64,000 bases of DNA from a virus (lineage: Duplodnaviria; Caudoviricetes). The notes below the pieces were generated by a model. The model did not search any database and was not told where the DNA came from. It worked only from the letters and a program-made list of their open reading frames with translations. The translations under genes and the position numbers were made by a program. Positions 1,154 to 61,436 of this stretch are shown here, one piece after another. Positions within the stretch are counted from its first letter, which is position 1, and every line of letters begins with the position of its first letter. The stretch covers positions 32,001 through 96,000 of IMG/VR virus record IMGVR_UViG_3300028048_000080; one strand, 5' to 3'.

Positions 1154-2482
1154 TTAAGATTTTGGTTTGCTGTTATCGCTGGAACTCTTCCCGGCAAATT
1201 GAGTATAAATTTCACGTGCCCTGCTTGCCCGGTCGTCCGCATAGCCGGAAAAACCGCCGCCTTCATATTCCACCGCGAATACTCTAGCCGCTTCTTCAGG
1301 CGTACCGCACCCTTGAGCGCTGTTAAATACACTGGCATATCCGCCATTTAGTTCTTCGGTAGCGAACTTAATTTGAGCTTGGGGAGTCCACCATTCGCCA
1401 TTGGATATAGTAAACAATCTTACGGCACGAGGACCCGTCCATTGTGCTAAGCCGATTCCAGGCATCGGGCCGAGTCCGTCGCCGCCATCATATCCACTAG
1501 GATTTGCGTTAACAAATTTGCTTAAATGAGACATAGCCCATTGTGCGTATTTACTACGGTCTTTTGACTGTTTAACCTGTTGTGACTCGGCTTCATCAAG
1601 GTAGTCCCCTTCTAACGCATCAAATCGTCCACTAGATTCACCAGAAAAACAGCCTAACAACCCTGCTGCTGCGATATCGTTGAACCCCATTTGCTTTAAT
1701 GCAGACCAAAGCGATTGCATATCGCCGCTAGAAATGGAAATATTGGTGTTTAAGCTGCCCTTGCCCGTATTTGGTAAGCCGGTTCCTGTGCCATAATTAG
1801 CATCGGTATTGCGAGCTACGCTGCCTGCTCTATCGATGCCTTCTTTACCGATAAGACTCTTGGCATCTTTGATAATGCCATTAACCTGATACCCTTTATC
1901 AGAAAGGGCCAATATATCCTCGTTAAGCTTGAGCGGGTCATTTATCTTAATAGCCGTATTAATTTCCGGCACATTCAATAGCGGGCCAAACATCGGGCCG
2001 CGCCATGGGCGCCGGATAAGCATATAGCGTTTAAGGTTGGGCTCCCAAGCTTTAACTAAAACGTGGCCACTCAAAGTAAGATTGCCCACGATTACGTTCT
2101 GATTAATAAGCAGTTTTTGAGCCCGCATATCAGCGAGCTCCCATAACTGCGGATTGAGCTTATGCTCATTTACTAAGATTTCATCGACGGTAAACTTCTG
2201 TCGATTAGCGATGGTTTCTTTTTCCATGGCCTGTTCAGTGATACGGCCATTAGGATTCATGTGCACCGAAGCGTACTTGGATGGCGTCATGTTAATCTGT
2301 CCATCTTTTCGTACCACTACGGCCGAACCCGTTATTTCATTTACGATACCCTGCTCGCTCATACGAGAAAGGTTATCAGCCTTGTCGCGAATTTGTTTTA
2401 ACGACGTAGAAAAATTTTTCGGTTCATCAGGCTCAATTGCTACATTGATGCTTCCCGATGATGCATTCTTTATTTCTTTCAT
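1154..2482 (-). CDS. Baseplate/tail-associated protein with C-terminal phage tail lysozyme (Phage_lysozyme2-like) domain
   Basis: GFNDIAAAGLLGCFSGESS...GIGLAQWTGPR...TPEEAARVFAVEYE...RASRAREIY matches the tail lysozyme pattern. Start moved to ATG 2482 (AGGAG RBS). Confidence 0.8.
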   Translation of the reverse strand: MKEIKNASSGSINVAIEPDEPKNFSTSLKQIRDKADNLSRMSEQGIVNEITGSAVVVRKDGQINMTPSKYASVHMNPNGRITEQAMEKETIANRQKFTVDEILVNEHKLNPQLWELADMRAQKLLINQNVIVGNLTLSGHVLVKAWEPNLKRYMLIRRPWRGPMFGPLLNVPEINTAIKINDPLKLNEDILALSDKGYQVNGIIKDAKSLIGKEGIDRAGSVARNTDANYGTGTGLPNTGKGSLNTNISISSGDMQSLWSALKQMGFNDIAAAGLLGCFSGESSGRFDALEGDYLDEAESQQVKQSKDRSKYAQWAMSHLSKFVNANPSGYDGGDGLGPMPGIGLAQWTGPRAVRLFTISNGEWWTPQAQIKFATEELNGGYASVFNSAQGCGTPEEAARVFAVEYEGGGFSGYADDRASRAREIYTQFAGKSSSDNSKPKS

Positions 2483-2490
2483 GCTCTCTC

Positions 2491-2862
2491 CTACATGATA
2501 CAGCCGCCAGGGGGCTGACACCCCCCGCCGTCACTGAATACATCCTGACGAAGCTGTCGTTTGGAACGCACGTCCATGGCATAGTTGCCGACGTGACGAG
2601 CCACTACTACGCAGGTATCGCCAGTATCTTCTACTACTACTGCGTCATTAACTGCCGGAAACCAGTCTGCACCGTTACCGTACAATCTGACGACTACATT
2701 ATCTCTATTACGTTTCCTACCGCCCTTATCGATGTATTTTATACTAACCGTATTATTCGATTCGTCGGAGTCCGTTACGACACCGATGGTCGTAATACCC
2801 ACGTTAACGCGGGCGGCGGGATTTACTACTTCACTCTGCAGTTTGTCTTTCAATGCTGCCAT
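2491..2862 (-). CDS. Putative baseplate spike / gpV-like OB-fold protein
   Basis: GVVT..D...TVSI...VRL...WFPAVNDAVVV pattern like gpV N-terminal OB folds; lies after the hub-like giant protein. Confidence 0.5.
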   Translation of the reverse strand: MAALKDKLQSEVVNPAARVNVGITTIGVVTDSDESNNTVSIKYIDKGGRKRNRDNVVVRLYGNGADWFPAVNDAVVVEDTGDTCVVVARHVGNYAMDVRSKRQLRQDVFSDGGGCQPPGGCIM

Positions 2863-11386: not shown

Positions 11387-11417
11387 AAAAAGTATCAGCA
11401 CGATACTTTTTCAAAAA
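11387..11417. repeat. 31-bp palindromic element copy 1 (AAAAAGTATC-agcac-GATACTTTTT-CAAAAA)
   Basis: Identical copy at 20351-20381. Confidence 0.9.
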
Positions 11418-11441
11418 AATAACGCCACCCGAAGGTGACGT
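11413..11441 (-). terminator. Probable intrinsic terminator after the 2960-aa gene
   Basis: ACGTCACC-TTCG-GGTGGCGT hairpin followed by a T-run on the minus strand. Confidence 0.65.
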
Positions 11442-11446
11442 GTAAA

Positions 11447-14400
11447 TTATGCTACGCCGATAGCGTGAGCTACCATACGATTAACTTGTAGCTGAGATAA
11501 ACTGTTGCCTACCGAAGTGCTCAGGTTAACGTTGACTGAACCAGTCTGAGGAGTCAGTCCGCTGGCCGCGTTGGAGATGGCATCCACCGCTGCCTGCTGT
11601 CCTTGGCCAGTTTGAGCGTTAATGTTGATAACGTAGCCTGAGGATGGGCCACCGCGCATTACGTTCAGATTGGAGTCGGATAATGACATCTGCTGCATGG
11701 CAATCTGATCCCCTTGGTCATTAGACATCTGCATCGCCTGAGTCTGAGCCGGAGTAGGAACATCGTGCTCTACCGAGGGGCCGGAAGCGTAGCCGGCAGT
11801 CATGAGCCCGGCAGCTATCCCGATTGCCGCGGCTATAGCTTTTCCTCCGGCTCCGCCGATGGGCGCAATATCGAGCATGCGTCCGAAAGATTTCCCGGCG
11901 CTTTCGGCCGTATCTTGCACTACGGCGCGTCGATAACGAGCGTTACGGTTCCTGGAGGCCGCTTCAGCCATCTGCTGTGCCGCATCTTCAGCGTTCTTAT
12001 GTATCGCCGTTGAAGTAGCGTTATCCAAGTCGTTAAAAGCTCCGCTGACTCCGGCTTCAGCATTCATATCATTTAATACCTGAGCTGTTTTGCCGAGTTG
12101 ACTATCTACCGAGTGACTGGAACGATAATTGAGTGGATCGGAGGCTTTTAAACCTGAGGCAGAAATACCCGTCATTAAAAGTTTTTGTTCTTTCTGGTCG
12201 ATGGTAGTGTTGCGCACGATATCACCAAAAAGCTTAGTGGTATTTTCGATAAGCTCATCGGTGTCGCCAAGCATGGCTGAACGCGGGCCAAATTCCTTTT
12301 TAGCTCTGTCCTTAAATACGCCGCCTACAAATGTTTGAAGAGCACTTGCCGCTTCTTCACGGTTTTCTCCCGTATACATTGCTTTTACGGCATCGCCCCA
12401 TACCTTCTGCAGTTCCTCAGCTCGTTTTAAGTCCGTTTCGCCGCGGGCGTTTTTACCGGTGAGAGCACCTTCCTGTAGAGCCATTAGACCGATAAGAACT
12501 TCGGCGTTTTCTTTACCCGTAAGCTTAGCTTGAGAATGAGCTATACGAGAGAATTCGAATAAGCTCTTATTCATAATACCGGCTGCTTTCTTAGAAGCCG
12601 CTTCGGTAAAACGTTCATCCATGCCCATCTGCCATTTACGATAATGCAGGGCTTCATCAAAGGCGGCGGCTTCTTCTTTGCCGTAGTTTTGAGCTACGAA
12701 GTTACCCATTCGCTGAACATAAAGAGCTTCATCTTTGGCCGCTCCTTTCTCAGCATCCCAGATTTTTTCAAAGTCTTCCGCGTGGCTGGTCTTATAATTT
12801 TCATTCAGCTGATCTAACAGGGCTTTATTGGTTTTTATTTCTTCCTCGGTGTATTTCTTTTCGAAGTTAACCAGTCGGTCACCATCGTAAGTATATTCCG
12901 TAAGGTTGCTAACACCGTAGGAATCATCGGCGATATGTTTCCCGTCTTTCCCCCAGTGAGATTCCTGAGGCTGGCCATACGGCGTAATATCTACCGCGTT
13001 GCGTACCATGCCCGCCTTAGCTTCTATGAAGTTATCATCGAGCAGTTTAACGTTCGTACCTTCCATGGCGCTTAAAGCACGATACGCGGCGAAGTCGACT
13101 TGGGCACGTACGGTGCGTCCATCAGCGTAAGTAATTTCGGCTTCACTCTTACGGATCATCGCGTTGATCTTATCGGAGTCATAGTCACCGTTCTGCTGGC
13201 GGAACGTCTTTAAGTTGGTACGGAATTCATCTCGACCGAGAATATCGCTAAAGTGCATATTGACGGCTTGAACCGGGTCACGAGAAACCAACGGATAACG
13301 CTGATCTACCGCGATAGTACCCTCTTTATCTAATACGCCGAGAGTCTTTTCTTTCAGCTGCTTAGCCAGTTTTTTATCGCCGCCAGCCATCTGCTCGAAC
13401 ATCTCGTCGGAATAGATAGCGTCTCTATGCTGCGTGCTGGCAAATAAGAAGCCGAGATCCATACCACTACCCTTTAAGACAGCATCTTTGGCGTTTCGGA
13501 TGTCGGCCAGTTCAGTGAATGATTTCCCGGAATCAAGGAATTTGGCATTGCCAAAAGCGCCATCTAATCCGTCGCCGAGGAACTGGAACCCCTGTGCCGT
13601 GCCGTACATGGTGCCATCCGAAATAACCGTAGTGGACGCCCGTTTGAACGTGCCGTTTTTATCGGTAGCTTCCTGCGCAACCATCGAACGGAGTTTCTCT
13701 GTCTCACGCATCAGTTCACTGCGCCGCTTCTCGTTAATATCTTGTCCGCCGCCGCGATGATTCTCATACTCGCTCGTGTACTGGTCATGCAGGCGCGTTA
13801 CGCGAGCTACCTGGCGCTGCAGCTCACTCTTACGAGCCGCGCCGGTGCTGTCTTCCTGCTGCAGCGCGGAGAATGGCAAGGCAATGGTGCGGTCACGATC
13901 CGACGTATATATCTGGCCATCTATTAAAGAGTTGGAATGCAAGTCAAGAACAATGGCCTGTCCATACAATGATTCAGCGAATTTATCATCAGTTTTATGG
14001 ATGCGAGCGTTGGTACGGAGGTCGTCGATAGACAAGCTGGTAAAGCCCAGGTTGTTCATTTCTTCCAACGAGTATTTATGACTGCGATTATATTCATGCG
14101 CGTTGGTCGAACTATTAGCTTCGATGAGGTCTAAGACTCTATTGGCGGTAGCATCTTGTACGTTGGACTTCTTCAGAGCATTAATGGCTCTCTGCGCAGT
14201 CTTTTTGTCGACCCCTTGCTCTTTGAGCCATGCCATGCCCTCTTCAGCGGTTTGGGCAGTTTCTCCGTTTTTCAGAATATGCTCAGCCCCTTGTACGCCT
14301 TTCCCCTCGTGAACGAAAGTGTCTTTCATAAAGTCATCGACGAGAGTCTGGTAGGCCAAGTCGCCATCTTTTTTAGACTTGGTAAAATCTTGGATAGCTC

Positions 14401-17400
14401 TTGAGAAGGCCGTGTCGCCGAACGCATCGGATATAGCCGTGGAAGATTTATCTATATAGTCCTTCGTATATACGGTGCTCTTCAAAGCATCAATAGTACG
14501 TTCATCTGCTTTGAAAGTGGATCTGTCTCCAGACTTACCGTAGTTATAGTTAGGCAGGACTCTAACCTGAGTGCGGGCGACTTCGTACATTACGTCGCCA
14601 TATTTGGTGGAAAGCTGGTGCATGGAATCGTGCCAGCCATCTTTGCCGCCAAAATATTTTTCCGTAACTTTGTTTAAGCCTTTAGTGCTAAGATGGCTGT
14701 CGTCAGTTACGAATTCTGCCCATTTTTTACCGTCAGTATCTTCATGGATTTTGATGCCTTTCATGGCACCGTTTTTCTCCATGATGTCCTTGGCTTCTTC
14801 TATGGAAAAACCCTTAAGATCGATTAATCCGTTAAACGTAGCTTCGAATGCGGAAGGGCCACCATGTTTTTTATGACCGGCCGCCGTATGACCGAACATG
14901 TCAATAGCTTCTTTTATGCCTATATCTCTTAGAGCTTCGTCCATAACGGTATTGGTACGGTAACGCTCTTCGAGTAAAGCGGAAGCAAACTTCGCCACAC
15001 CGCCAAAATTCTTGTTAATAATTTCTTCTATCTTGGCGTCGTTAAGAGCTAATAGTCGTTCACGCTTGGCTTTGTCTTTTTCCGCCATCGCTTTGCTGAG
15101 CGTCAGACCATGAACGAAAGCGGCAAATCCCGTACCTTTTACGGTTCCGGTATCAAACAATTCTTGAATAAAGTCGACGTGAATTTGCCGGCCGATAAGC
15201 TTTTCTGCGTTCAGCTCTTTTAATGTGGAAGCGATTTTCTTGTCGACTTCTTGTGAACCTTGGCCAAGCCCGTTCATCAAGACATGGCTCATCTGTTTTT
15301 CGCTATAGTCGGTCAGCTTAGTGTGGCCATCTATATCCAGGCTTTTAACGTAGAAGTCGTGAGAGAACGGCGAATTTTCCTTAGAGAAAAGCGCCCAGGC
15401 AGCCTGCTCGCGCTCAGCCCCCGTAAGAGATTTGTTAATATTCTGGTTGATATAATCGCTTACGGCCTCATCGGTCATTTCTTGACCGTTTTTAAAGATG
15501 CCTGACCTTAAAAGCCCTGTCTGCTTAGCCCTTACGGTTTCGTCTTTATACGTAGCGCTATTAGAAGCTTTAGTAAACAGTTCTTCTCCAGATTCTACGT
15601 ATACGCCTGCGTTCGATTCATAATGGGCCATACCGTCGGCGTCAAAAGTAATTTTGCCCTGAGCTTTCAATAGCTTTTCGAAATTACGGCTATTTTCGAT
15701 ATCGGAGCGGGCAATTTTGCCGAAAGCAACATGCTGTTCAAAATGCTCGGAGGTTAATCCGGCATCTGCGGCGCGGGCCGAAATGGCGCCCGATGCTTCA
15801 TCCGTAAAGATGGACATCATCTGACGATATTCGAAGGAGTCCTCGCCCAGCTTATCGGCAGCATATCGCATTAAGCGGCGCATACTTTCCGAATCAGCGG
15901 AGAGCTTATTGACCACCATGGTGTCGGCAACGTTATGGCCAAGCTTCTCGGAAATAGCATTCATATGCATGTGTTCCTGCATGGATTCGAATGCTGCTCC
16001 AAAACGTACGCCACGGCCTTCCATGATTTTTGCGGCGCGTTCTACATTGAACGGGATGGCCCTATCCATCTTAGTAGAAATATGGTTAAGGTCTTTGTCA
16101 TAGGACATTAATCCGCGATAACTGTCGGATAGAATATTTACCTGACCACGGGTGTCACCGGCATGGCTCAGGATATCCTGAAAAGCGCCTGTGGTGTCGC
16201 CTTCAAAGAGGTCGAGAAATTCTGCGCGCCCAGAGTCAATACTATCGACGATATACGGAGTCAAAATATGCAGTGTGCGCATATATGCTGCCGCGAGAGA
16301 ACTCGATGCATTCTTTAACGAATTGATTTCATCGACTCTTTTAGCGTGTTTAATACCTTCATCGCCGATTTTCTCCAAGTGCTCAATCATGATATCGGCA
16401 GCCTGCGTACCTTCGTCGCGAAGTTTTTGTATTATCTCTTTGCGGTCTTTTTGCCCTATCGTATGTAAAGTTTCGTCTATATTAATAACGTTAGCGAGAT
16501 TACGGTCTTGGCGGTCGCCAAAATAATCAGCTGAGTGCTGCCGATATCTCGCGCTTCGCATTCCGAAAATGCCTGATACTTCTTCGGCAAGATTACCGTT
16601 TTCCCTTCCGCGGTTGAACATGAAGTTCATTAGGTTCTCGCCATCTCTAGCGAGACGACCTTCTTCCGTGGTATAAATTAAAGCGTTGTGCTTGGAAGAA
16701 TAATAGAGGCCTACTTCGTCGCCGAACTCTTGTCCGTTAGCCAGGCGGCGCTTAAAAGTACCGTTGGAAAATACGTTGCGGTCAAGACCGATTACGGTGT
16801 AGTTATTAGCCCTTACATCCTGCGCCGTATTATAGACCCAGAACTGGCCATAATCTTTGTTATAGCCTATAGCGCCGCCGTGAGAATAAATGCCGCCAAT
16901 AATCTGTTCAAGCATTTCTTGGCTGGCGCCGTAGCGGGCACGCTGCATCTTGTAAATCTTACGCGCGTCTCTCTCACTATAACCAGCGGTGTCTACCAGC
17001 TTCTGGATAAACTCCTGCTCTTCTTTTTCGGTTCCTTGCGATACATCGAAGCCGTTATTGAAAACTATGTTTTTATTAATGTCAGAAGCGACGCCCTTGG
17101 CCCAAGCTAGAAAATCCTGCCCTTCCTTGGACTCTTTTTTCCAAACAGGTTTACCGTTTTCAGCAACAGGCTTGAAACTAGTAGCAACCTGAAAATCGAT
17201 GCCGGTAGCTTTGGAACTAACGGCGAGAATCTCATCGTCCGTCAAACCGCCGTTAACCAAGTTGTCGATAATATCGAACTGCTCGGTGGTAGACAATATG
17301 CCAGCCCATACATTACGTTTTCTTCTTTCACGCATTAAATGAGTGATCTTGCCGCCGGCGATAGCAGCAGTGTCGTTTTCAATATCGACGAGATATTCTT

Positions 17401-20329
17401 GCCCGCGACCATCGGCGATGTCATCCAGTTTTATAATCCCTTGATCCAAGAGACGCTGTTGAAAGTTAGCCAAGAGAGTAAGTTTTTCATCTTCTTGAGC
17501 GTGCTCTATTTCGTTAGCGGAACGTCCCATTTGCCGCATCAAAGATTTGACTACGCCGTAATCAGCGTTGATATCGATTGAAGCCATAGTGCTTCCGGAC
17601 AAAGATTTAACCCCGTAGAATCCTTCGATATCCACTTGGAACTTATTCAGTTCGCTGGCAACGCGGGGAAGGACTTGATAACCTGCGCCGGCCTTGCCGA
17701 CTTTTTCTATAGCGGCTTCTTCAAACATATCCCGAATTTCGTGATAAAAGAATTGAGCTCTGTCATCACTTAAGGATATGTCTTTGCCATAATGGTCACG
17801 CACGGCTGTTAAAGAGGCTTTGATTAACCCCTTGTTTGCGCGCGCCCATTTTTCGAGCGACGCCATATTCTCCATCGTGTCGGCATAAGCCTTACGTTGT
17901 CCCGTCTCTTTGTCGATATAGCCAAAGTAGTCCTGAAGAGAACCGTCATATTCATTGAATTTAACTTCTACCCCAGAAAGTTGCTTCTCTTCTATCTCTT
18001 TCGTCTTAGCTTTAACCTTATCACGAAATTCTTGGCGAAGATCTTCAATGGTGCTTTCGTCCGCCTGATTTTTTAAAAGCCCTTTTTCCTTCAGCTTTTC
18101 ATTAACATATTTATCCATGTCGTCGACATACTGCATGAGCCTTTCGTCACGACTGGCAATTTTATCACGAGCTTTGCGCCCGGCAGCATCATTAAACGCT
18201 CTATCAGATATTTCCTCTAAATCTTTGAGAGAAGCTGTCTTGTATTTACGGTTGCCCTCAGCGTCTATAACCACCGTGCTAAGCATGTCCCGATATTCTT
18301 GGGGAACATTTTCCATTAAGAATTCTTTGTCGTTCCCCGTTTTTTTAGCACCCGCTAAGGTGAATAAGTTATTAACGGTATCCATAAGATCCTGATACTT
18401 GCCGACCAGAACGATGTCTCGGTGTGCCGAAGCCAACTTAGATTTGGTGTGCGTAGTCCAGCGCATAGCAAACAAGTCTCCGCCAGCCATATTTTCATGA
18501 TTGGAAAGTATAGGCATTAGCGGGGAATCAGATTCTATCTTGGAAATACCTGAAAGCTCGTATAATCCGCGGCGATGTATACCGGGCGCCTGATAAAGTG
18601 CCCGTGCGCCTCCTTTTTCGCCGATAGCTACGCCGTCAGAAGACCACCACTGGTTAGTGTCTTTGTCGAAAGCGAAAGACATTACGCCATGCTTATGCGG
18701 ATCCCAGGTAGAATTATTAGCGAAGAAAAGCTGCGTACTGTTGCCCTTTAATTTAACGGCGTTTTTGGTAGCTTTTTTAGTGATAAACGAATTAGAGGAG
18801 TTAGGGTCATAGAATCCGCTGCCGAATACTACGCGCATAAGGTCGATGGCATCAGCTTCAGCGATATGGGTTTGACCGCTATGGATAGCTTCCGGCGAAA
18901 GACCTTTTTTAATAGCCGTCGCCGCCAGGATTGTCTGCTGAGTTTTAGGAGTCTCTTTCTGCGTTTTCATCCACTTCATGAGCGAATCCGTCTTGTCCTT
19001 GTCGCCCATGTAATTGCTCCAGAACGTATACGGGTCACCCATGTGTTCTTTAGGAAGAACCATTGCGTCGAGAGCGTTATTAAAATGCAGATGGTCGCCG
19101 CCAAGAATGCTACTCATTTCCTTACGGAATGCTTCAGTAGTTAAATCCTTATTATGCAGGAGATAATCGAGCTGAGGAATATCGAAGCGATTGCCATTAT
19201 AGCTTACTGCCGTAAGGTTATTGGCATAAATGTTACGGATGGCCGAGGCAAGCTCTTTTTCCCATCCGAACATTTCGTTGCCTACGCGGGTCTTTTCTTG
19301 GTACTCGCCGACTTCACGGAGAAGATTAGCGCCCTTAATCATTTCTTCTATCGTGCCGTTCGCGCCAGTTATATCCTTCTGCTCGGAGAAAGAAGAAAAT
19401 CTAACTACACCGTCTTTGGCTTCATCCCAGTTCACGTGCGTATATTTAGCGCCATGCAAAGCGAGACGGTTAAGGGTTACAAGTTCACCTTCTGCCATCT
19501 TTTCGCCACGAGAAAAACGGTCGATGAGGTTAAGCATATTCTTATGCTCTTTGCCGGACAAACCAATAATAGAACCGTAAGTTTTCTTAATATTGAAGTC
19601 GCCCGTCTTAAAATCGCCGAAGCCATCAGAGAAAGAAAACTCGGTAATACGCTGCATCTTATCGTATAACTTATCACCGTGACGACCGAAGGTTTCCAAG
19701 TCGAATGCTACGGCGCGCCCTTTTTGGGCGACGATGTTTTCGACGGCTTTTACTGATTCGTGTGGAGCGCCTTTAGTATAGGGGGTAGTTTTTTGATAGA
19801 TAAAATCGTATCCCGTGGTCTTTCGACTTTTCCCGTAAGTAAAAGCTTTGGAAAAAGTACGCACATTAAGACCCGAATACAATTTAACTAACTGCTCGTC
19901 AATTTTAGGAAATTCACTGAACTTCCTGACGGCTGCGTGTGGAACCACTATAGTAGCGCCTTGCGGTTGAGCTAAGTCAGCTATACGATACGCCAAGAAA
20001 GGAGCTATACTATGGTTTTCTTGCAGAGCAAGTTTTTTCCGCATTCGCTCCAACTCGCCACTGTGTTTTTCTCTCCACCAATTCCGATCTTGATTGTATA
20101 GCCAGACACTATTGTCTAAGTCTTTGATGATATCGGCATCGGCTTCGTCGCCTATATCCTTAAAAAATTTTAAGCTTTCTTGTTGTTCGTGAAAAAGATC
20201 TCTTTCGATGTGTTGTCTAGCATGTTTTCGCTCGTCCATCTTTTTTTGGAACGATTCCGAATTAGTAAATTTATTTAATTCAGCCTGCATACGAGCCTGC
20301 CGTCTTGCGTTGTCGCTGAAAAATGCCAT
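11447..20329 (-). CDS. Giant (2960 aa) putative virion RNA polymerase (two-barrel type) with N-terminal DEDDh 3'-5' exonuclease domain
   Basis: QRYP followed 38 aa later by NGDYDSD (beta-prime-like RxP..DxDxD spacing). Exonuclease motifs AFDLET, YNGNRFD, HIAEAD. Hydrophobic C-terminal helix. Confidence 0.7.
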   Translation of the reverse strand: MAFFSDNARRQARMQAELNKFTNSESFQKKMDERKHARQHIERDLFHEQQESLKFFKDIGDEADADIIKDLDNSVWLYNQDRNWWREKHSGELERMRKKLALQENHSIAPFLAYRIADLAQPQGATIVVPHAAVRKFSEFPKIDEQLVKLYSGLNVRTFSKAFTYGKSRKTTGYDFIYQKTTPYTKGAPHESVKAVENIVAQKGRAVAFDLETFGRHGDKLYDKMQRITEFSFSDGFGDFKTGDFNIKKTYGSIIGLSGKEHKNMLNLIDRFSRGEKMAEGELVTLNRLALHGAKYTHVNWDEAKDGVVRFSSFSEQKDITGANGTIEEMIKGANLLREVGEYQEKTRVGNEMFGWEKELASAIRNIYANNLTAVSYNGNRFDIPQLDYLLHNKDLTTEAFRKEMSSILGGDHLHFNNALDAMVLPKEHMGDPYTFWSNYMGDKDKTDSLMKWMKTQKETPKTQQTILAATAIKKGLSPEAIHSGQTHIAEADAIDLMRVVFGSGFYDPNSSNSFITKKATKNAVKLKGNSTQLFFANNSTWDPHKHGVMSFAFDKDTNQWWSSDGVAIGEKGGARALYQAPGIHRRGLYELSGISKIESDSPLMPILSNHENMAGGDLFAMRWTTHTKSKLASAHRDIVLVGKYQDLMDTVNNLFTLAGAKKTGNDKEFLMENVPQEYRDMLSTVVIDAEGNRKYKTASLKDLEEISDRAFNDAAGRKARDKIASRDERLMQYVDDMDKYVNEKLKEKGLLKNQADESTIEDLRQEFRDKVKAKTKEIEEKQLSGVEVKFNEYDGSLQDYFGYIDKETGQRKAYADTMENMASLEKWARANKGLIKASLTAVRDHYGKDISLSDDRAQFFYHEIRDMFEEAAIEKVGKAGAGYQVLPRVASELNKFQVDIEGFYGVKSLSGSTMASIDINADYGVVKSLMRQMGRSANEIEHAQEDEKLTLLANFQQRLLDQGIIKLDDIADGRGQEYLVDIENDTAAIAGGKITHLMRERRKRNVWAGILSTTEQFDIIDNLVNGGLTDDEILAVSSKATGIDFQVATSFKPVAENGKPVWKKESKEGQDFLAWAKGVASDINKNIVFNNGFDVSQGTEKEEQEFIQKLVDTAGYSERDARKIYKMQRARYGASQEMLEQIIGGIYSHGGAIGYNKDYGQFWVYNTAQDVRANNYTVIGLDRNVFSNGTFKRRLANGQEFGDEVGLYYSSKHNALIYTTEEGRLARDGENLMNFMFNRGRENGNLAEEVSGIFGMRSARYRQHSADYFGDRQDRNLANVINIDETLHTIGQKDRKEIIQKLRDEGTQAADIMIEHLEKIGDEGIKHAKRVDEINSLKNASSSLAAAYMRTLHILTPYIVDSIDSGRAEFLDLFEGDTTGAFQDILSHAGDTRGQVNILSDSYRGLMSYDKDLNHISTKMDRAIPFNVERAAKIMEGRGVRFGAAFESMQEHMHMNAISEKLGHNVADTMVVNKLSADSESMRRLMRYAADKLGEDSFEYRQMMSIFTDEASGAISARAADAGLTSEHFEQHVAFGKIARSDIENSRNFEKLLKAQGKITFDADGMAHYESNAGVYVESGEELFTKASNSATYKDETVRAKQTGLLRSGIFKNGQEMTDEAVSDYINQNINKSLTGAEREQAAWALFSKENSPFSHDFYVKSLDIDGHTKLTDYSEKQMSHVLMNGLGQGSQEVDKKIASTLKELNAEKLIGRQIHVDFIQELFDTGTVKGTGFAAFVHGLTLSKAMAEKDKAKRERLLALNDAKIEEIINKNFGGVAKFASALLEERYRTNTVMDEALRDIGIKEAIDMFGHTAAGHKKHGGPSAFEATFNGLIDLKGFSIEEAKDIMEKNGAMKGIKIHEDTDGKKWAEFVTDDSHLSTKGLNKVTEKYFGGKDGWHDSMHQLSTKYGDVMYEVARTQVRVLPNYNYGKSGDRSTFKADERTIDALKSTVYTKDYIDKSSTAISDAFGDTAFSRAIQDFTKSKKDGDLAYQTLVDDFMKDTFVHEGKGVQGAEHILKNGETAQTAEEGMAWLKEQGVDKKTAQRAINALKKSNVQDATANRVLDLIEANSSTNAHEYNRSHKYSLEEMNNLGFTSLSIDDLRTNARIHKTDDKFAESLYGQAIVLDLHSNSLIDGQIYTSDRDRTIALPFSALQQEDSTGAARKSELQRQVARVTRLHDQYTSEYENHRGGGQDINEKRRSELMRETEKLRSMVAQEATDKNGTFKRASTTVISDGTMYGTAQGFQFLGDGLDGAFGNAKFLDSGKSFTELADIRNAKDAVLKGSGMDLGFLFASTQHRDAIYSDEMFEQMAGGDKKLAKQLKEKTLGVLDKEGTIAVDQRYPLVSRDPVQAVNMHFSDILGRDEFRTNLKTFRQQNGDYDSDKINAMIRKSEAEITYADGRTVRAQVDFAAYRALSAMEGTNVKLLDDNFIEAKAGMVRNAVDITPYGQPQESHWGKDGKHIADDSYGVSNLTEYTYDGDRLVNFEKKYTEEEIKTNKALLDQLNENYKTSHAEDFEKIWDAEKGAAKDEALYVQRMGNFVAQNYGKEEAAAFDEALHYRKWQMGMDERFTEAASKKAAGIMNKSLFEFSRIAHSQAKLTGKENAEVLIGLMALQEGALTGKNARGETDLKRAEELQKVWGDAVKAMYTGENREEAASALQTFVGGVFKDRAKKEFGPRSAMLGDTDELIENTTKLFGDIVRNTTIDQKEQKLLMTGISASGLKASDPLNYRSSHSVDSQLGKTAQVLNDMNAEAGVSGAFNDLDNATSTAIHKNAEDAAQQMAEAASRNRNARYRRAVVQDTAESAGKSFGRMLDIAPIGGAGGKAIAAAIGIAAGLMTAGYASGPSVEHDVPTPAQTQAMQMSNDQGDQIAMQQMSLSDSNLNVMRGGPSSGYVININAQTGQGQQAAVDAISNAASGLTPQTGSVNVNLSTSVGNSLSQLQVNRMVAHAIGVA

Positions 20330-20350: not shown

Positions 20351-20381
20351 AAAAAGTATCAGCACGATACTTTTTCAAAAA
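20351..20381. repeat. 31-bp palindromic element copy 2
   Basis: Identical to 11387-11417; lies in the leader of the 2960-aa gene. Confidence 0.9.
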
Positions 20382-20419
20382 CGTCTTTTCTAAATATAGA
20401 TTACCGATAACGGGCAAAG

Positions 20420-20444
20420 AAAAACCCTGGATTATTCCAGGGTT
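20420..20444 (-). terminator. Probable intrinsic terminator after the 2195-aa gene
   Basis: AACCCTGG-aataat-CCAGGGTT hairpin followed by Ts on the minus strand. Confidence 0.65.
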
Positions 20445-30749: not shown

Positions 30750-32330
30750 TTATTGATTTTCAAAATATTTATCTACGTCTTGACGTCCTTTTTGCCAAGC
30801 TTTCTTGAGAGAAGCGTACCACTCCACGTATTGCCCTTGCGTAATGGCTCCGTTTTCTTTCGCTGACAATAACGTATTGCTTAAATTCTGTAGCGTGCTG
30901 TCGATGATAGCCAGACAATGATTCCGCCCTTTTTTTAAATCATCCTCGCTAATTATGAACGCTTGACTATAGTCAGGTTTGTCGGCCGTTACTTCCTGTT
31001 TGCTAGGCGTTTCTTGTGCGGGCAAATCAACGGGCGCTTCCTCTTTCGTGTCATCGTTGTCATGTTTCGGCTTTTCAGCGGCATGGCTTCCGCTCTTAGC
31101 GCCGCCATTGGAATCAACGTTTACCGTCAGATAATCCAAATCTTTAGCCATATACTGGAACGTATTTTCCGTATACATATCCTGAACACTCATAGTCTGA
31201 CCTTCCATGACGAAGGTGACGCCATATATAGCTAGGCGTGATTTGTCGCCGTACTCATTGCACATGGAAATAGTAATATTAATGGGCGGCAACTCATCCG
31301 TGAGAATATGCGCGTTACTGCCAACATGCCGTAAATACTCATCCATCATCTTATGGGCCCAGTGCCGGTCAAATACGGTAAACACCATGGAACCGGCGAT
31401 GGTGCGGTTACCGAATACTACACTCTTCATATTCATGTCGCCTAATACGCGTACGGGCATTTTTTCGTTATACATGGAGTAGGAGATAGTCTGAAGCTCG
31501 CCGACAACATGTGTAATACTGCCTTTCTCGAGAGGAATTTCGAAGATGGCTACCATGTCATGTCCTGAGTATGAAGTATATGTTTTGACATACTGAGAAG
31601 AAATGGTCATATTGGATGGCTTCTGCCAGTCAATTTTTTGCTCTCCTTTAGATGGAAGGCTCGGGGACGATGGAGTAGTATTTTTAGGCGGAGCTTTTAC
31701 CTTGGCGGGGGATTGTTTATTGTTTTCTGGGAGTTTGACGGGTGCCTCTTTTTTGTCCTCCGATTTATTCTCTTGAGGTTTTTCCCCTTGAGGCTTTTCT
31801 TGAGGTTTTTCTTCCTGAGGAGCATTTTCTTGAGGCTTCTCCTGAGGCTTTTCTTCCGAAAGGGGGTCTTGGGGAGGAGCCTGAGGAGGTTTATTTTCTT
31901 CCGGCTTTGTTTGGTTGCCCGTATTGCTGGGAGGAGGGCCGCTAACCACATCGGTATTGTTGGCGTTAGCCATTTCTTCTATAGTAACGCCGTATGCATC
32001 ACCGGCTTCTTTCCAGTAGGCGGTGCTTTCAGCACTACTTAACGGAGTGGGAGTTCCTCCAGCGTTAGCGTAATCTTTTCCTGCTTTTCGCAAGGCGTTT
32101 GTTTTACGGGCTAACATGATATTATATGCTGCCGCATCATAACCATTTTGCCACAACAATTCGCTAGTTATGGCAACATCAGCGCCGTATTGAGCTTGTA
32201 TTTTCTTAATCACGGAGGCTTTGAGTGCTATCCAGCTGGCCGTGGTCTTGGTATAATCTATTTGTGCAGCCCTGAGCGCCGCTTCCGTTTCTTGCAATTT
32301 ATCATTATTTGCCATATCGGGTTTGTTCAA
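30750..32330 (-). CDS. Tail tube-like protein (paralogue 2) with low-complexity extensions
   Basis: YVKTYTSYSGHD..VGELQTISYS..IAGSMVFTVFDR..DELPPINITISMCNEYG, close to the 228-aa tube protein; EKPQ repeats. Confidence 0.75.
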   Translation of the reverse strand: MNKPDMANNDKLQETEAALRAAQIDYTKTTASWIALKASVIKKIQAQYGADVAITSELLWQNGYDAAAYNIMLARKTNALRKAGKDYANAGGTPTPLSSAESTAYWKEAGDAYGVTIEEMANANNTDVVSGPPPSNTGNQTKPEENKPPQAPPQDPLSEEKPQEKPQENAPQEEKPQEKPQGEKPQENKSEDKKEAPVKLPENNKQSPAKVKAPPKNTTPSSPSLPSKGEQKIDWQKPSNMTISSQYVKTYTSYSGHDMVAIFEIPLEKGSITHVVGELQTISYSMYNEKMPVRVLGDMNMKSVVFGNRTIAGSMVFTVFDRHWAHKMMDEYLRHVGSNAHILTDELPPINITISMCNEYGDKSRLAIYGVTFVMEGQTMSVQDMYTENTFQYMAKDLDYLTVNVDSNGGAKSGSHAAEKPKHDNDDTKEEAPVDLPAQETPSKQEVTADKPDYSQAFIISEDDLKKGRNHCLAIIDSTLQNLSNTLLSAKENGAITQGQYVEWYASLKKAWQKGRQDVDKYFENQ

Positions 32331-32409: not shown

Positions 32410-33096
32410 TTACTTACTGTTGGACATAGGGACAGAACCGGCGTTTTCGATAGTGGAGCCGTTACGGTCAACCGGCTTCATGTATTCAACGCGGCGAGCT
32501 ACGAAGGAGCAAGCCTTCTCGCTCGTAACGTTATCGATGGAGAAGCCGGACTGTTCATCCAGAATCTCAACCGCGTACAGAACAATGGAAGCCTTCTGGC
32601 CATATTCGTTTGCGAACGAAATGGTGATATCGAACGGCGGGATTTCATCAGCATAACGCGGCGTAGCAGCCGAGCTGATATTTTTTGTAATCTGCTGAGA
32701 AGCAGCGTCGGAGAATACGGAGGAATCCGTTTCAACGCCGTTCATAGCGATATCGGTCAGCTTAGCATCCCATTCATCAACGGAGATGCGTTCGTATTCG
32801 AGCTCTTCGCCACCAATACGGTGGAACGTCTGTTCCTTTTTAACGTGTTCTTGCAGGGCGGCCAAAAGTGCGTCCCTATCGAACACCGTGAACACCAGAC
32901 TGCCTGCCACTCCCCGCTTGCCTCTAGAGAAGGAACGCGGCTCCGGGCTACCCATGGTGTAAATGGGGGCCTTCTCTCTTTTGACGGCATAGGTGATAGC
33001 CTGCAATTCCCCGACGACTTTATCGCCGAAAGTTGCTACGATATCGCAGCCGCTAAAAGAGGTGTAGGTTTTTGTATATTCCGAGGATACGGACAT
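32410..33096 (-). CDS. Major tail tube protein
   Basis: Immediately after the sheath; strong codon bias; TYTSFSGCDIVATFG..GELQAITY..GKRGVAGSLVFTVFDR. Confidence 0.8.
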   Translation of the reverse strand: MSVSSEYTKTYTSFSGCDIVATFGDKVVGELQAITYAVKREKAPIYTMGSPEPRSFSRGKRGVAGSLVFTVFDRDALLAALQEHVKKEQTFHRIGGEELEYERISVDEWDAKLTDIAMNGVETDSSVFSDAASQQITKNISSAATPRYADEIPPFDITISFANEYGQKASIVLYAVEILDEQSGFSIDNVTSEKACSFVARRVEYMKPVDRNGSTIENAGSVPMSNSK

Positions 33097-57138: not shown

Positions 57139-59181
57139 ATGAAAAAGAATCGTTATTTAACCGACGTCAACGCTGTTGTGGAGATGGCTCGCGCCCATAA
57201 GCGCGTAGTCATTTCTAATCAGCAGGATTTTCAGGCGGTTACTCACCGTCTGACATCAAAGGCTGGTAAAATGTTCAGCGTTATGTCGCTGAATTATAAC
57301 CAGTCTACCGGTTGGTTCTCGCCGATGGCGGTGAAAGTTCCGGTTTCACTGGAAACGGCGGAGCTGGAAGGTACGGTGCGCGCCGAAAACGCGCACATCA
57401 ATAGCATCACTATGATGCCTATTGAACGATTCTCTCGGGCATACATTAATGTATGCTGCGGCGACAATCCGGACCTTTTAGACTTGCTGTTGCTCGACGG
57501 CAAGATTTATTGCGTCCTGAAAGTGGGCGCCAATGGGAAGAACGTGAAAGAATCGTTCTTCGTTCAGAGCGAAAAGGAAGGCGTTGCTCTGAATATCACC
57601 AATGGCAAGGAATGCCCGTTCACCGCCTTCGATAGGGAAGACGTACACGTACATGTGTACGGGCTTCTCGGGGTGTCTTCTCCCGGCCAGCAGAAACAGG
57701 GGGAAATCTCGCTTTATTGCGAGAATCTGGATGGTTTTGATGCCGTAGACCATCTGGACAACATGACTCACGGCATGTATCGGCTTATCGCCAAGCATTA
57801 TGCTGGGCAGCATGATAAGCTGAAAACCCTGGCACAGATTTCGACCCGTATCAGCCAGTTTAAAGCTGGCATGGTTCGGACGAAACCTATCCAGGGTATT
57901 GCCATCTCTATGTTCAAAGTCAAGGATGTCCTTGACAATGAATGGATGGATGGTCTGCAGCTGTTCTCGGCCGAAGGTGTTGCCCGCGCTTTCAGCGACG
58001 ATCAGTTTACGGTACTTCCGAGTGCCGTGGACGGAGCTGCCGCACAAGCTAGACCTCTTATCGTGAACAAAGGTTTGGGTTTGTGCATGCCGACTCAGTG
58101 CATCTTAACCATCTTAAGAGCGCTGGGGTGTGAGTTTGAATTCCTTGCTCAGGATGAACTCACGGATGAACAGTTTAAGAGCTACCAAAAGGCAGTTCTT
58201 AAAAAGTCCGGCGACTACAAGGGCAAAACGCTGGTTATTCTTCCGACTTTCAAGAAGGAAGATGGCAGCATTATGAGCGACGAAGAGAAACTCATGCATA
58301 TCGATGCGTGGGTGGATCTGAACGTACACAAAACTGTGTGCGATATTCGCCGCCCATTCACGGGATTCAATGTCATGGGCTTTGACCATGGCAAGAAAAC
58401 CGTGGAGGAGGAAGCCAATACCTCCAATCAGTTATTGGCATCTGCGCTGTACGCTGATACTCCGCGTACTCTTGAGTATATGCTCAATTGCACGAAGAAA
58501 GAGGCAGACAGCATTATGGCTAATGCCGTCCGCATGGATGGCCGGCGCCTGACAGCTAAAGACCTCTTAGGGGATTTGGCTATGGCTTCGCAGACAGCTT
58601 ATCCAGAATTTGCCGTGCGCCATTGGGCGCCGTACTTCCAGGATAATCTGAATAAGGCCCTGGAAGGATTCGGTACGCGTCTTGAGAAACTGTCAGTTTC
58701 CACTGACGGTATCTATCTTAAGATTATTCCGGATCTTAGCCATTTCTTCGGTATCAACCTTCTCCAGTACGATGCCGAAGAGGGGGTATGCGAAGTGTTA
58801 GCACCGCAGCTTTCGAAAGAAGGCAAACGGCGCGCAATCGCTATCAAATACCCGAAGATGGCGACGGACGAATTCGCCAAGATTATTCCGGTTGCTCCGG
58901 AAGACTTGGTAGAACGTGCTCGCTACCATCTGGAGAATGGGGAAATCACCGAGGAACAGTTCGATGTACTGCAGCATCTGTTCTATATGCTTCATGACGG
59001 TATCATCATGGTGCCGGCTATCGAAGAATTGAAGAATATGCTTGCGGGCATGGACTTCGATGGTGATGCGCTTGTTGCTTATTGTGATGAGACTTTGGTC
59101 GACATCATTTGGGCAATCAAACCCGTGGCAACTACTATTATGAAGGATAAAGACTTCGCCGTCTTTCAAGCTTCAAATTAA
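57139..59181 (+). CDS. YonO/QDE-1-like two-barrel RNA polymerase, N-terminal catalytic subunit
   Basis: MDGLQLFS, AQARP..NKG, KYP and LAGMDFDGD (DFDGD at 59053-59067). Confidence 0.8.
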   Translation: MKKNRYLTDVNAVVEMARAHKRVVISNQQDFQAVTHRLTSKAGKMFSVMSLNYNQSTGWFSPMAVKVPVSLETAELEGTVRAENAHINSITMMPIERFSRAYINVCCGDNPDLLDLLLLDGKIYCVLKVGANGKNVKESFFVQSEKEGVALNITNGKECPFTAFDREDVHVHVYGLLGVSSPGQQKQGEISLYCENLDGFDAVDHLDNMTHGMYRLIAKHYAGQHDKLKTLAQISTRISQFKAGMVRTKPIQGIAISMFKVKDVLDNEWMDGLQLFSAEGVARAFSDDQFTVLPSAVDGAAAQARPLIVNKGLGLCMPTQCILTILRALGCEFEFLAQDELTDEQFKSYQKAVLKKSGDYKGKTLVILPTFKKEDGSIMSDEEKLMHIDAWVDLNVHKTVCDIRRPFTGFNVMGFDHGKKTVEEEANTSNQLLASALYADTPRTLEYMLNCTKKEADSIMANAVRMDGRRLTAKDLLGDLAMASQTAYPEFAVRHWAPYFQDNLNKALEGFGTRLEKLSVSTDGIYLKIIPDLSHFFGINLLQYDAEEGVCEVLAPQLSKEGKRRAIAIKYPKMATDEFAKIIPVAPEDLVERARYHLENGEITEEQFDVLQHLFYMLHDGIIMVPAIEELKNMLAGMDFDGDALVAYCDETLVDIIWAIKPVATTIMKDKDFAVFQASN

Positions 59182-59249
59182 GTTGTCAATGCCGTATGTA
59201 CAGAAAGCCCCCGATTATGCGGGGGCTAATTGTTTAGGAGGAGTCTATT

Positions 59250-61436
59250 ATGGAAAAGAAAGTTATCAATGCCCTGAATGCTATCGTTACCGGCAAAAAC
59301 TACCCCATCGATGAACGGGTAGTTTGGACGTATTTCTATACGTACCAGAAAAAACAGATTGACCCGGTTGGGATGGTTACGAAAGATTTCTGGCCATTTC
59401 AAGCCATTATGTACGCTGTTGATATGTACAAGATGGTGCAGAGCTGGGAAGAGTCCCCGGCAAAGACGGCTTGGCTCAAAGAGTTGAGCATGTCTTTGGA
59501 CATCGCTTTTAAGTGGCTCAGAAATGAGCTGCTCGTCGGTACGGAATACACTGACAAGAAAAGCAATTACAAAGTATTCCGCGCACCCATCTCCGAGAAA
59601 GAGATGACCGGCGCTCCGAAAGTGAGCGCCATCTGCGTACGCGCTGGCCGCAAGGCCATTAACCGTGCGCGCAAAATGTTCTTTGCGCCGCTGAGCCAGC
59701 AGGAAATGGCTAAGAGCCATGAGCTTAGCGAAGAAGAACTCCTGACCTTGGATAATGTCATGGCATTCTGCAAGGTCATGGAAAAAGTGGGTCGTATGAG
59801 CCAGGAAGGCACTATCGACTCCACCAAGAGCGGTGACGCTCCGAAAATCCTGCAGTACGTCGTCAAGACGGAAGCAGGGAAGAACGGACTCCGTGAGGTA
59901 ACCCTTATGGAGGCTCTTAGCCGTGTCAGCTTGCTTAGCCGTAAATCCGAGAAGTTTGGCGTACAGCTGAACTTCGAAGCAGGCGAAGTCGAGGTTAATC
60001 ATAATAAACGTATCTCTTATCAGGAGAAGAAACGTTACGTGATTGCCGATATGTTGGATAAAATCCGCATTAACGGCCTCGACAACGCTATTCCGGCCGA
60101 TGTATCGGAGAAGGTATTCGCCGTAAAGCAGGCACTCTCCGATGAGCAGATGGCGATCTGCAGCCGTCTTGCTGAACAAGGTGTATACGCAGACGCTATT
60201 CGTGTTCTTATGAACATTTATCGCAACCTGCGTGATACCCAGAAAGCAGATATGCGTCAGGCAATCAAGGATGCCGGCAAGAATGAGGAAGCTCAGAAAG
60301 CCGGTATTGCCGTAGCCAAGGAACAGACCAAGGTAGCGTACAATGCGCTGTCCAATACGGTGCGTTCCCTGGTGAAAGGTATGAGCCATGAACAGCTCAT
60401 TCAGCTCGTACTTGGAGTAACGTTCAAGTATATGGGCAAGGACGCAAAACGTCCGAGCTCTTTCGCCGGGATTATCCTGGCCGAGGAGTTCTTCGAATAC
60501 ATCATGAGCTTGTATTCGGAAAACGAGGAATTCGCACTTACCCGCGATGAACTCGCTGCGTGCGACGCAGAGGACGGAGAAGTGGTAGAGTTTGTCGGCG
60601 GCGTAGTACCTGGTCGTGCTATCTTCTCTCAGGAGAGAAACGCTATCCCCGATGGCGTGTACACCGTTCGTAAGAATGGCAAACATGCTTGGGTAGAGGC
60701 CAGTGTACGTGATCGTATCGAAGCTCGTTTAAACGATGCTTATAATCCGGAAGAACTCATCTTCCAGACTGGTACGATTGCCACCGAGAAAGAAGCCGAT
60801 GCTCTGCTGGATGCTATTAACGGCGCCAACGAGGTAGTTCTCGCTTCTCGGATGCATAATCCGAATGGTGGCAAAGATCTCTTCGACGTAGTTTTAGCTG
60901 ACGGCAAAGCTGTCGCTCATTATCAGACCAAGGTGAAGAACATGGTCAAGAACGATAAGGGCGAATTGGTAGCCAACAAGGTCAACGGCAAAGACGATTA
61001 TACGATTTCGCAGGCTCTTCGTAAGTTCTACTCCGGTAAAACTGGCGAGGTTGCGTTCGCGCATAAGCTGTCTTTCGGCGAAGGCAATAAGACTCAGTAT
61101 GCCGTCATCGTAGTACTGAAAGGTACTAAGCAGATGCGCGCCAATGCTGTAGTTAAAGCTGCCGCCGAAGCCGTTGTTAGCGCCGATTTCGGAGTAGAGA
61201 AGAAAGCTGCTCCTAAAGCGTCCGTTAATAGCCGTCTTGCCGCTCTTAAGGCAAAGGCTGCGGACAGTGAAAAGGAAGAAGCTCCTGCTCAGCCCGAAGA
61301 AGCAGAAGAAGCTCCTCAGCTTACCTTAATGCAGCGCCTGATGGCGAAACGCAACAAGGTAGCCGAGAAGCCCGTTACTGATAAGAAGCCCAGCCGACTC
61401 GCTCGCCTGCGCAAAGCTGGTGCTGACATTCAGTAA
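59250..61436 (+). CDS. Probable second (C-terminal) subunit of the split YonO-like RNA polymerase
   Basis: PVGMVT and SQEGTIDSTKSG resemble the G.IS and AVD..KTG motifs that follow DxDGD in this family; own AGGAGG RBS. Confidence 0.6.
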   Translation: MEKKVINALNAIVTGKNYPIDERVVWTYFYTYQKKQIDPVGMVTKDFWPFQAIMYAVDMYKMVQSWEESPAKTAWLKELSMSLDIAFKWLRNELLVGTEYTDKKSNYKVFRAPISEKEMTGAPKVSAICVRAGRKAINRARKMFFAPLSQQEMAKSHELSEEELLTLDNVMAFCKVMEKVGRMSQEGTIDSTKSGDAPKILQYVVKTEAGKNGLREVTLMEALSRVSLLSRKSEKFGVQLNFEAGEVEVNHNKRISYQEKKRYVIADMLDKIRINGLDNAIPADVSEKVFAVKQALSDEQMAICSRLAEQGVYADAIRVLMNIYRNLRDTQKADMRQAIKDAGKNEEAQKAGIAVAKEQTKVAYNALSNTVRSLVKGMSHEQLIQLVLGVTFKYMGKDAKRPSSFAGIILAEEFFEYIMSLYSENEEFALTRDELAACDAEDGEVVEFVGGVVPGRAIFSQERNAIPDGVYTVRKNGKHAWVEASVRDRIEARLNDAYNPEELIFQTGTIATEKEADALLDAINGANEVVLASRMHNPNGGKDLFDVVLADGKAVAHYQTKVKNMVKNDKGELVANKVNGKDDYTISQALRKFYSGKTGEVAFAHKLSFGEGNKTQYAVIVVLKGTKQMRANAVVKAAAEAVVSADFGVEKKAAPKASVNSRLAALKAKAADSEKEEAPAQPEEAEEAPQLTLMQRLMAKRNKVAEKPVTDKKPSRLARLRKAGADIQ

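Follow-up and report, generated by a model that had tools for sequence, protein, structure and literature searches.

A Predicted DEDDh Exonuclease Joined to a Two-Barrel RNA Polymerase in a Giant Tail-Module Protein of an Uncultured Phage

The Locus and Its Giant Gene

The DNA considered here belongs to a virus of the Caudoviricetes (IMG/VR record IMGVR_UViG_3300028048_000080). The window, meaning the whole stretch of 64,000 nucleotides that was analysed, comprises bases 32001-96000 of this 124.6-kb record, for which CheckV gives a completeness of 54%. Its minus strand carries three giant open reading frames (ORFs) in tandem downstream of a tail sheath gene. The middle one is open throughout and encodes, without a stop, a protein of 2960 amino acids, hereafter P0001 (Table 1). 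Two enzymes appear to be united in this protein: a DEDDh exonuclease, predicted near the N-terminus, and a two-barrel RNA polymerase (RNAP), modelled with good support in the C-terminal half. Approximately 1000 residues lie between them.

Table 1. Features of the giant gene and its surroundings (positions refer to the window).
Feature	Position	Strand	Basis or remark
Predicted DEDDh exonuclease domain, residues ~190-521	18767..19762	-	Model residues 24-355, the portion aligning to solved DEDDh enzymes
ExoI AVAFDLETFG, residues 206-215 (D210, E212)	19685..19714	-	Motif search and homologue alignment
Helical insertion of ~110 residues between ExoI and ExoII, residues ~259-369	19223..19555	-	Secondary structure of the model
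ExoII SYNGNRFDIPQL, residues 376-387 (N378, F382, D383)	19169..19204	-	Motif search and homologue alignment
ALDAMVL, residues 419-425 (invariant D421)	19055..19075	-	In register with the 'DT' motif found after ExoII in TREX-like enzymes
ExoIII THIAEADAIDL, residues 487-497 (H488-x4-D493, 'h' subtype)	18839..18871	-	Motif search and homologue alignment
Two-barrel RNAP module as modelled, residues 1500-2699	12233..15832	-	Structure model and fold searches
Conserved K1671 ... E1677-K1678, candidate beta-like barrel lysines	15296..15319	-	Homologue alignment
R2344-x-P2346 and, 38 residues later, G-D2382-Y-D2384-S-D2386, beta'-like barrel metal site	13172..13300	-	Motif and alignment
Gene for the 2960-residue exonuclease-RNAP giant (P0001)	11447..20329	-	Own ribosome-binding site GAGAGGGGA, ATG at 20329
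N-terminal module, residues 1 to ~700	18230..20329	-	Separate ORF of 629-679 residues in several relatives
Sole hydrophobic Gly/Ala-rich helix, residues 2821-2849	11783..11869	-	Conserved across the family
C-terminal domain, residues ~2880-2960 (GYVININA ... VNRMV)	11450..11692	-	Best-conserved stretch of the whole protein
Upstream giant (P0002), 2195 residues	20443..27030	-	Orthologue of 0305phi8-36 gp145
Downstream giant, 2829 residues	2831..11320	-	Orthologue of 0305phi8-36 gp147, baseplate hub
25-bp palindrome AAAAAGTATCGTGCTGATACTTTTT	20351..20375		Between the upstream terminator and the ribosome-binding site of the P0001 gene
Second copy of AAAAAGTATCGTGCTGATACTTTTT	11387..11411		Just past the terminator of the P0001 gene, upstream of the hub gene

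The Predicted Exonuclease Domain

An initial annotation of this DNA, made from the sequence alone, had proposed an intact DEDDh exonuclease at 18840-19712, fused to a putative virion RNAP. The span is correct to within 1-2 bases, and the four motif strings named there lie at the claimed places with every catalytic position present. Eight residues (D210, E212, N378, F382, D383, D421, H488 and D493) do not vary among 10 full-length homologues of 2923-3200 residues, down to 29% identity. A wider view comes from a domain profile, built from six diverse copies and searched against 1.84 billion representative proteins (50%-identity clusters). It matched 167 clusters, nearly all of them proteins of 2600-3500 residues with the domain at about residues 110-550. 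Counts of the catalytic residues among some 150 clusters are close to complete: D210 and E212 in 152/152 each, D383 in 147/149, H488 in 144/144, and D493 in 142/143. Clusters that keep these five residues have diverged to 20-30% identity. Because the catalytic residues are conserved near-universally, the alignment argues for an active enzyme.

The predicted fold is of the same kind. An AlphaFold2 model of residues 167-540, built on a 15-row alignment, has a predicted local distance difference test score (pLDDT) of 83.2 and a predicted template modelling score (pTM) of 0.82. Foldseek placed Pop2, RNase T, 3'hExo, TREX1, PARN, and ExoI first (E ~5e-3, probability 0.99). With VIA-align, the closest match was the epsilon subunit of DNA polymerase (Pol) III (Z 10.8, root-mean-square deviation 3.1 A, 170-172 of 175 epsilon residues aligned), and TREX2, TREX1, the PolC exonuclease, the DnaQ domain of Cas2-DEDDh, the N-domain of DinG, and ExoI all fell within one Z unit of it. 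All 50 of the 50 matches listed are DEDD exonucleases. At the sequence level, the family profile matches a 195-residue TREX-like 'exodeoxyribonuclease III' (9mrd, E 0.002), and in this match ExoII, the DT motif, and ExoIII line up; in a separate alignment, ExoI and ExoII also align with 9mrd.

The domain thus has the fold, the full DEDDh set, and the DT motif in common with DnaQ/epsilon, TREX1/2, ExoI, Cas2-DEDDh, and the DinG N-domain. It differs from them in some 110 extra helical residues between ExoI and ExoII, in a longer spacer between ExoII and ExoIII, and in scoring below Pfam thresholds. The distance from D210 to D383 is 173 residues, while the corresponding ExoI-ExoII aspartates are about 90-110 residues apart in epsilon and TREX1. 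The company it keeps is also different, being an RNA polymerase and not a DNA polymerase, a helicase, or a Cas protein.

General profile libraries do not recover the domain. Pfam and PHROGs scans of the whole of P0001 and of the domain returned nothing above threshold. Pfam RNase_T was unmatched in six diverse members, the sole match being RNase_H_2, whose 17.8 bits fall short of the cut-off of 22, and a single-sequence search of the PDB with the domain gave only a weak, irrelevant match. The profile check against RNase_T/DnaQ suggested in the initial annotation therefore came out below threshold, and support comes instead from structure and the family profile. The Pfam miss is a limit of sensitivity and not the failure of a catalytic feature. 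The motif occurrences are not due to chance, since homologues conserve the residues, and fold prediction and structure search agree. Residues ~190-521 are accordingly predicted, on the strength of the model, to form a complete and catalytically competent DEDDh (DnaQ/TREX-like) 3'-5' exonuclease, and the annotated intact domain, with its conserved motifs and RNase H-like DEDD fold, is upheld.

The RNA Polymerase Module

The most conserved positions of the whole protein, across 127 full-length homologues, lie elsewhere. They are K1671, E1677, K1678, G2337, R2344, P2346, and D2382/D2384/D2386, with conservation of 0.95-0.97 for the RxP and DxDxD motifs. A structure model of residues 1500-2699 (pLDDT 83.1, pTM 0.80) had RNAP beta' or archaeal A' chains as all 50 of its best 50 Foldseek matches. 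VIA-align placed the RNAP QDE-1 first (Z 10.2-10.6), with an alignment that spans model residues 10-1154 and therefore covers both barrels. Next came P74-26 gp62 and the P23-45-type non-virion RNAP (nvRNAP) at Z 8.8-8.9 and, further down, the largest subunits of Pol I/II/III and of the archaeal, African swine fever virus (ASFV), and vaccinia enzymes. K1671 and K1678 fall in a beta-rich region of the model, and their assignment as catalytic lysines is a candidate only. The family profile aligns its RNP...DFDGD stretch with the beta'-like subunit of phiKZ, at a non-significant E of 0.58. A single-chain two-barrel RNAP of the QDE-1/YonO/P23-45 type is, on this modelling, a well-supported reading of the C-terminal half.

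The window also holds a candidate non-virion two-barrel RNAP, encoded on the plus strand by two ORFs 68 bp apart, at 57139-59181 (680 residues) and 59250-61436 (728 residues). The first ends in K-Y-P-K ... G-M-D-F-D-G-D, and none of these positions varies among its homologues. In a relative (G001) there is a single ORF of 1428 residues with DGMDWDID in mid-protein, which suggests a fused form, but BLAST similarity is confined to the DxDxD region. The candidate had no PDB match by profile and no Pfam match.

Persistence of the Fusion in Relatives

Conservation of the fusion was scored among full-length proteins of at least 2500 residues and among the giant ORFs found on twelve related viral contigs. 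Both the DEDHD set of the exonuclease and the K/K/RxP/DxDxD set of the polymerase are intact in 128 members, so that the fusion does persist in homologues, as the initial annotation had asked. Three loci that seemed to be without the exonuclease do carry it once search filters are switched off. Moreover, among the 1.84 billion representatives the exonuclease domain was found only in, or adjoining, the polymerase giant.

One full-length protein, P0013 (L011:9506-17584), has lost both active sites. Its exonuclease set reads DEGHN, with D to G in ExoII and D to N in ExoIII, its lysines and RxP are gone, and NDAESN replaces DxDxD. This is the only lineage with a dead polymerase site, and the pseudo-enzyme presumably keeps a structural or ejection role. 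The joint loss of the two sites is suggestive of functional coupling.

In several relatives the N-terminal ~630-680 residues (or 1025 residues), including the exonuclease, form a complete ORF of their own directly upstream of the rest. It had been considered that all short exonuclease-bearing matches were fragments at contig ends; this was rejected, as several are complete ORFs inside contigs. Three contigs representing two divergent lineages have an in-frame TAA at codon 670 (L024:5170-7488 and L025:396-2676, which share the same ORF, and L026:1514-5688, the second lineage), and in each the frame resumes with a new start 5-18 codons after the TAA. This stop could reflect a clean gene split or programmed read-through. 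The remaining split cases show a frame change or a gap between the exonuclease ORF and the rest. Stop-codon recoding was rejected as a general cause, since TAA also ends neighbouring genes and other splits change frame. Given these complete separate ORFs, the exonuclease module can be detached from the polymerase while keeping its place beside it.

Genomic Context and the Tail-Module Slot

The record points to an uncultured jumbo phage, specifically a jumbo myovirus, as its source, and near-identical DNA is present in bovine gut metagenomes from several studies. PHROG matches, all on the minus strand, include a large terminase, a portal, a protease-like protein, a major head protein, and a tail sheath. 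The terminase is closest to that of Moorella phage MTATph1 (44% identity), with Bacillus jumbo phages, including 0305phi8-36, at 31-36%.

The gene for P0001 comes after sheath, tube-like, and chaperone-sized genes. In 0305phi8-36, the sheath, tube, and chaperonins are followed by gp145, found in virions by mass spectrometry; by gp146, annotated as a 'hypothetical tape measure protein' and likewise found in virions; and by gp147, annotated as the baseplate hub. Homology links the upstream giant to gp145 (E 5e-67) and the third giant to gp147 (E 3e-78). The possibility that gp146 is a diverged homologue of P0001 was tried and rejected, with an hhalign probability of 0.15 for the family against gp146, and gp146 is without both the exonuclease and the DxDxD motif. 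As there is no similarity to gp146 while both flanking genes are orthologous, the tape-measure slot is occupied in this phage by a protein, P0001, that is not homologous to gp146.

From the flanking orthologues and the tail-module setting, we infer that P0001 is carried in the virion and ejected. The annotated fusion to a putative virion RNAP can thus be taken in two parts: a two-barrel RNAP is confidently modelled in the same protein, and its virion location rests on synteny rather than proteomics.

Searches for kin among isolates were negative. A tblastn search of P0001 against 50,697 phage records gave no match, nor did profile searches for the exonuclease and RNAP modules in MTATph1 and 0305phi8-36, the nearest isolates by terminase. 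P23-45 gp96 was absent from the PDB sequence matches and from the fold matches listed, though it may nonetheless be kin to P0001. An ESM Atlas look-up for the middle region of P0001, residues 541-1499, returned nothing usable.

The gene has signals of its own. Hairpins with T-runs resembling intrinsic terminators lie at 20419-20442, after the 2195-residue gene, and at 11412-11440, after the P0001 gene. Because such hairpins end both genes, the three giants look like separate transcription units rather than one operon. The perfect palindrome AAAAAGTATCGTGCTGATACTTTTT occurs in exactly two copies in the 124.6-kb record and may serve, for the P0001 and hub giants specifically, as an operator or an RNA hairpin. 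An exact k-mer search of the record for a repeated early promoter or hairpin motif found none.

Other neighbours can be noted briefly. Downstream of the hub, a 455-residue protein (1154-2521, minus strand) has a phage tail lysozyme domain (PF18013 in Pfam, E 5e-21), and a lysozyme gene after the giants fits a baseplate or cell-wall-piercing block. Two adjacent minus-strand ORFs, 30750-32330 and 32410-33096, both match phrog_9206, annotated 'major head protein'. This label is probably misleading for them, because they occupy the position of the 0305phi8-36 tail tube and its paralogue. Finally, the 'direct terminal repeat' of a complete relative (G003) proved to be a 55-bp assembly overlap and not a true terminus.

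Comparison with Known Systems

A published precedent for P0001 is found in Thermus phage P23-45, where a 5002-residue tape measure protein (gp96) has an N-terminal two-barrel virion RNAP that transcribes pre-early genes, including that for a second, non-virion RNAP (PMC10770324). Both proteins are giants of the tail module in the tape-measure position, with a two-barrel RNAP N-terminal to a membrane-type segment, and both phages appear to have a second, non-virion two-barrel RNAP, which here is the candidate at 57139-61436. However, P23-45 is a siphovirus with the RNAP at the N-terminus of gp96, whereas here a jumbo myovirus has it in the C-terminal half, with the DEDDh domain at the N-terminus. 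No sequence match between gp96 and P0001 was seen, and the text of the paper mentions no nuclease (PMC10770324).

The gp66 protein (PDB 6VR4) of phi14:2, a phage of the crAss-like kind, resembles the P0001 polymerase in being a large single-chain two-barrel RNAP of QDE-1-like architecture with a non-canonical DxDxD. It is packaged in the virion and prefers single-stranded DNA (ssDNA) templates in vitro (10.1101/2020.03.07.982082). It differs in belonging to a podovirus and travelling as capsid cargo, and it is not among the structural matches listed for P0001. In the clade of QDE-1 (Neurospora) and YonO (SPbeta), QDE-1 is the best structural match of the P0001 polymerase, and the consensus motif of the family is KxDxDGD. 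These enzymes, however, have about 800-1400 residues and no fused nuclease, and they do not belong to virions. The DEDDh enzymes ERI-1 and QIP of eukaryotic RNA interference are known to work beside such polymerases only as separate proteins.

Two further comparisons are more distant. The coronavirus exonuclease ExoN of nsp14 is a DEDDh enzyme that serves nsp12, a viral RNA-synthesising enzyme. There, nsp12 is a right-hand RNA-dependent RNA polymerase whose task is to replicate an RNA genome, and each of the pair is a mature protein of its own, whereas here a DNA-templated two-barrel transcriptase and an exonuclease are in one polypeptide. The virion RNAP (vRNAP) of coliphage N4 uses single-stranded promoter hairpins. 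This protein (gp50), of about 3500 residues, is comparable to P0001 in being a giant polymerase; it is ejected and has flanking domains for ejection and packaging, but it is a T7-like right-hand polymerase, and the text of a recent paper on its structure mentions no nuclease (PMC13434306).

Possible Functions of the Exonuclease

The restriction of the domain to the polymerase giant, the joint decay of the two active sites, and the retained adjacency of split modules argue that the exonuclease serves the polymerase. How it might do so has more than one potential explanation. The reading tentatively favoured here is that it resects the 3' end of the entering genome and so gives the polymerase a single-stranded template. 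The giant would travel in the virion and be ejected either before the DNA or along with it, and the polymerase would synthesise the first (pre-early) transcripts. The exonuclease would chew back the 3'-ended strand at the end of the entering linear genome, exposing ssDNA. The nearest characterised relatives of the polymerase favour templates of this form. Indeed, crAss gp66 transcribes ssDNA and denatured DNA efficiently and duplex DNA hardly at all, and QDE-1 likewise prefers ssDNA (10.1101/2020.03.07.982082). In addition, nine of the ten best structural matches of the exonuclease, as well as its best sequence match, are DNA exonucleases, with differences in Z of less than 1. Their predominance gives a weak lean towards the DNA end as substrate.

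Several points weigh against this reading. Structural similarity does not separate DNA-acting from RNA-acting DEDDh enzymes, and Foldseek puts Pop2 and RNase T first. Resection from 3' to 5' at the leading end removes the template for inward transcription; what is left is only the template for genes pointing toward the terminus, which constrains the model. The long separation of the two modules in P0001 is a further difficulty. Virion RNAPs also manage without an exonuclease: crAss gp66 is not known to have such a domain, and, as noted above, none is mentioned in the P23-45 and N4 papers. The joint loss of active sites in P0013 is a single event, and another relative, P0123, has D to N in ExoII with an intact polymerase site, which weakens the case for coupling. 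For the resection reading, then, we infer the virion location, the polarity of the exonuclease, its substrate, and its coupling to transcription.

Following closely, though somewhat doubtful, is the idea that the exonuclease trims the 3' end of nascent RNA, either as a proofreader or in the rescue of backtracked or arrested complexes. It would thereby supply in cis an activity missing from the YonO-type active site, somewhat like nsp14 ExoN. Where DEDD domains joined to polymerases have been characterised (Pol I, Pol B, PolC, epsilon-alpha, nsp14-nsp12), they act as editors of the product's 3' end. On the other hand, no DNA-dependent RNAP is known to make use of a separate exonuclease, and fidelity in short-lived mRNA is weakly selected. 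Transcript hydrolysis is undetectable in YonO, itself an error-prone RNAP of the single-chain two-barrel kind (PMC5467207). Infection could fail at an arrested complex, since a virion holds few copies of the polymerase and is without a Gre-like factor. The RNA-acting enzymes Pop2, RNase T, and 3'hExo are among the best fold matches, and the co-loss in P0013 fits RNA editing as well as it fits resection. Less easily accommodated are a best sequence match that is a deoxyribonuclease and the roughly 1000 residues between modules that in some lineages are separate polypeptides. If the idea were right, and the odds are against it, P0001 would be the first DNA-templated transcriptase to have an exonuclease dedicated to proofreading or rescue, and would parallel, in transcription, nsp14 ExoN and epsilon.

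It is unlikely that the exonuclease acts independently of the polymerase, as a weapon against host or defence nucleic acids, at nicks in host DNA, or in processing terminal repeats for annealing or circularisation. In other phages, proteins that are injected often act against host defences or shield DNA ends, and when terminally redundant DNA is resected 3'-5', its complementary ends become exposed. A terminal repeat of 6.5 kb is present in the relative 0305phi8-36, and the module can be an ORF of its own. Yet it occurs only in or adjoining the polymerase giant, and it decayed together with the polymerase site in P0013, the sole lineage to lose that site. Furthermore, no defence-related family was matched in scans confined to Pfam and PHROGs.

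Very improbable is a two-barrel module that is a DNA polymerase of PolD-like logic with the DEDDh domain as its classical proofreader. The exonuclease does resemble epsilon most closely, and two-barrel enzymes include the archaeal replicase PolD (PMC7281927), but the gene lies in the tail module and not in a replication module, and the best matches are QDE-1, phage nvRNAPs, and the largest subunits of cellular RNAPs; PolD is not among the matches listed, though a match to it may have been missed. Least credible of all is a structural relic without catalysis: P0013 stays full-length despite degenerate sites, indicating that the scaffold has a role of its own, but conservation of the five catalytic residues stands at about 97-100% among the ~150 clusters, at the divergence given above.

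Implications

Each part of this protein is of a known kind, as DEDDh exonucleases, single-chain two-barrel RNAPs, and polymerase-bearing giant virion proteins have all been described. A full-text literature search, with most subscription papers outside its reach, found no description of an exonuclease joined to a two-barrel RNAP. The locus also shows a tape-measure gene replaced by an enzyme-bearing giant that is not homologous to it, and it carries the idea of a tape-measure/RNAP fusion beyond a single Thermus siphovirus to a large set of jumbo myoviruses.

The fusion suggests that, with the enzyme for its first transcription, a phage may deliver a nucleic-acid trimming enzyme of its own. Two-barrel virion RNAPs, such as crAss gp66 and P23-45 gp96, are recent discoveries, and the present family (~150 sequence clusters from gut and other metagenomes) offers a direct experimental handle on how virion RNAPs obtain a usable template. 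Should RNA editing prove true, P0001 would represent the first transcription enzyme with a separate proofreader. Should resection prove true, these phages would carry a self-contained 'resect and transcribe' injection device.

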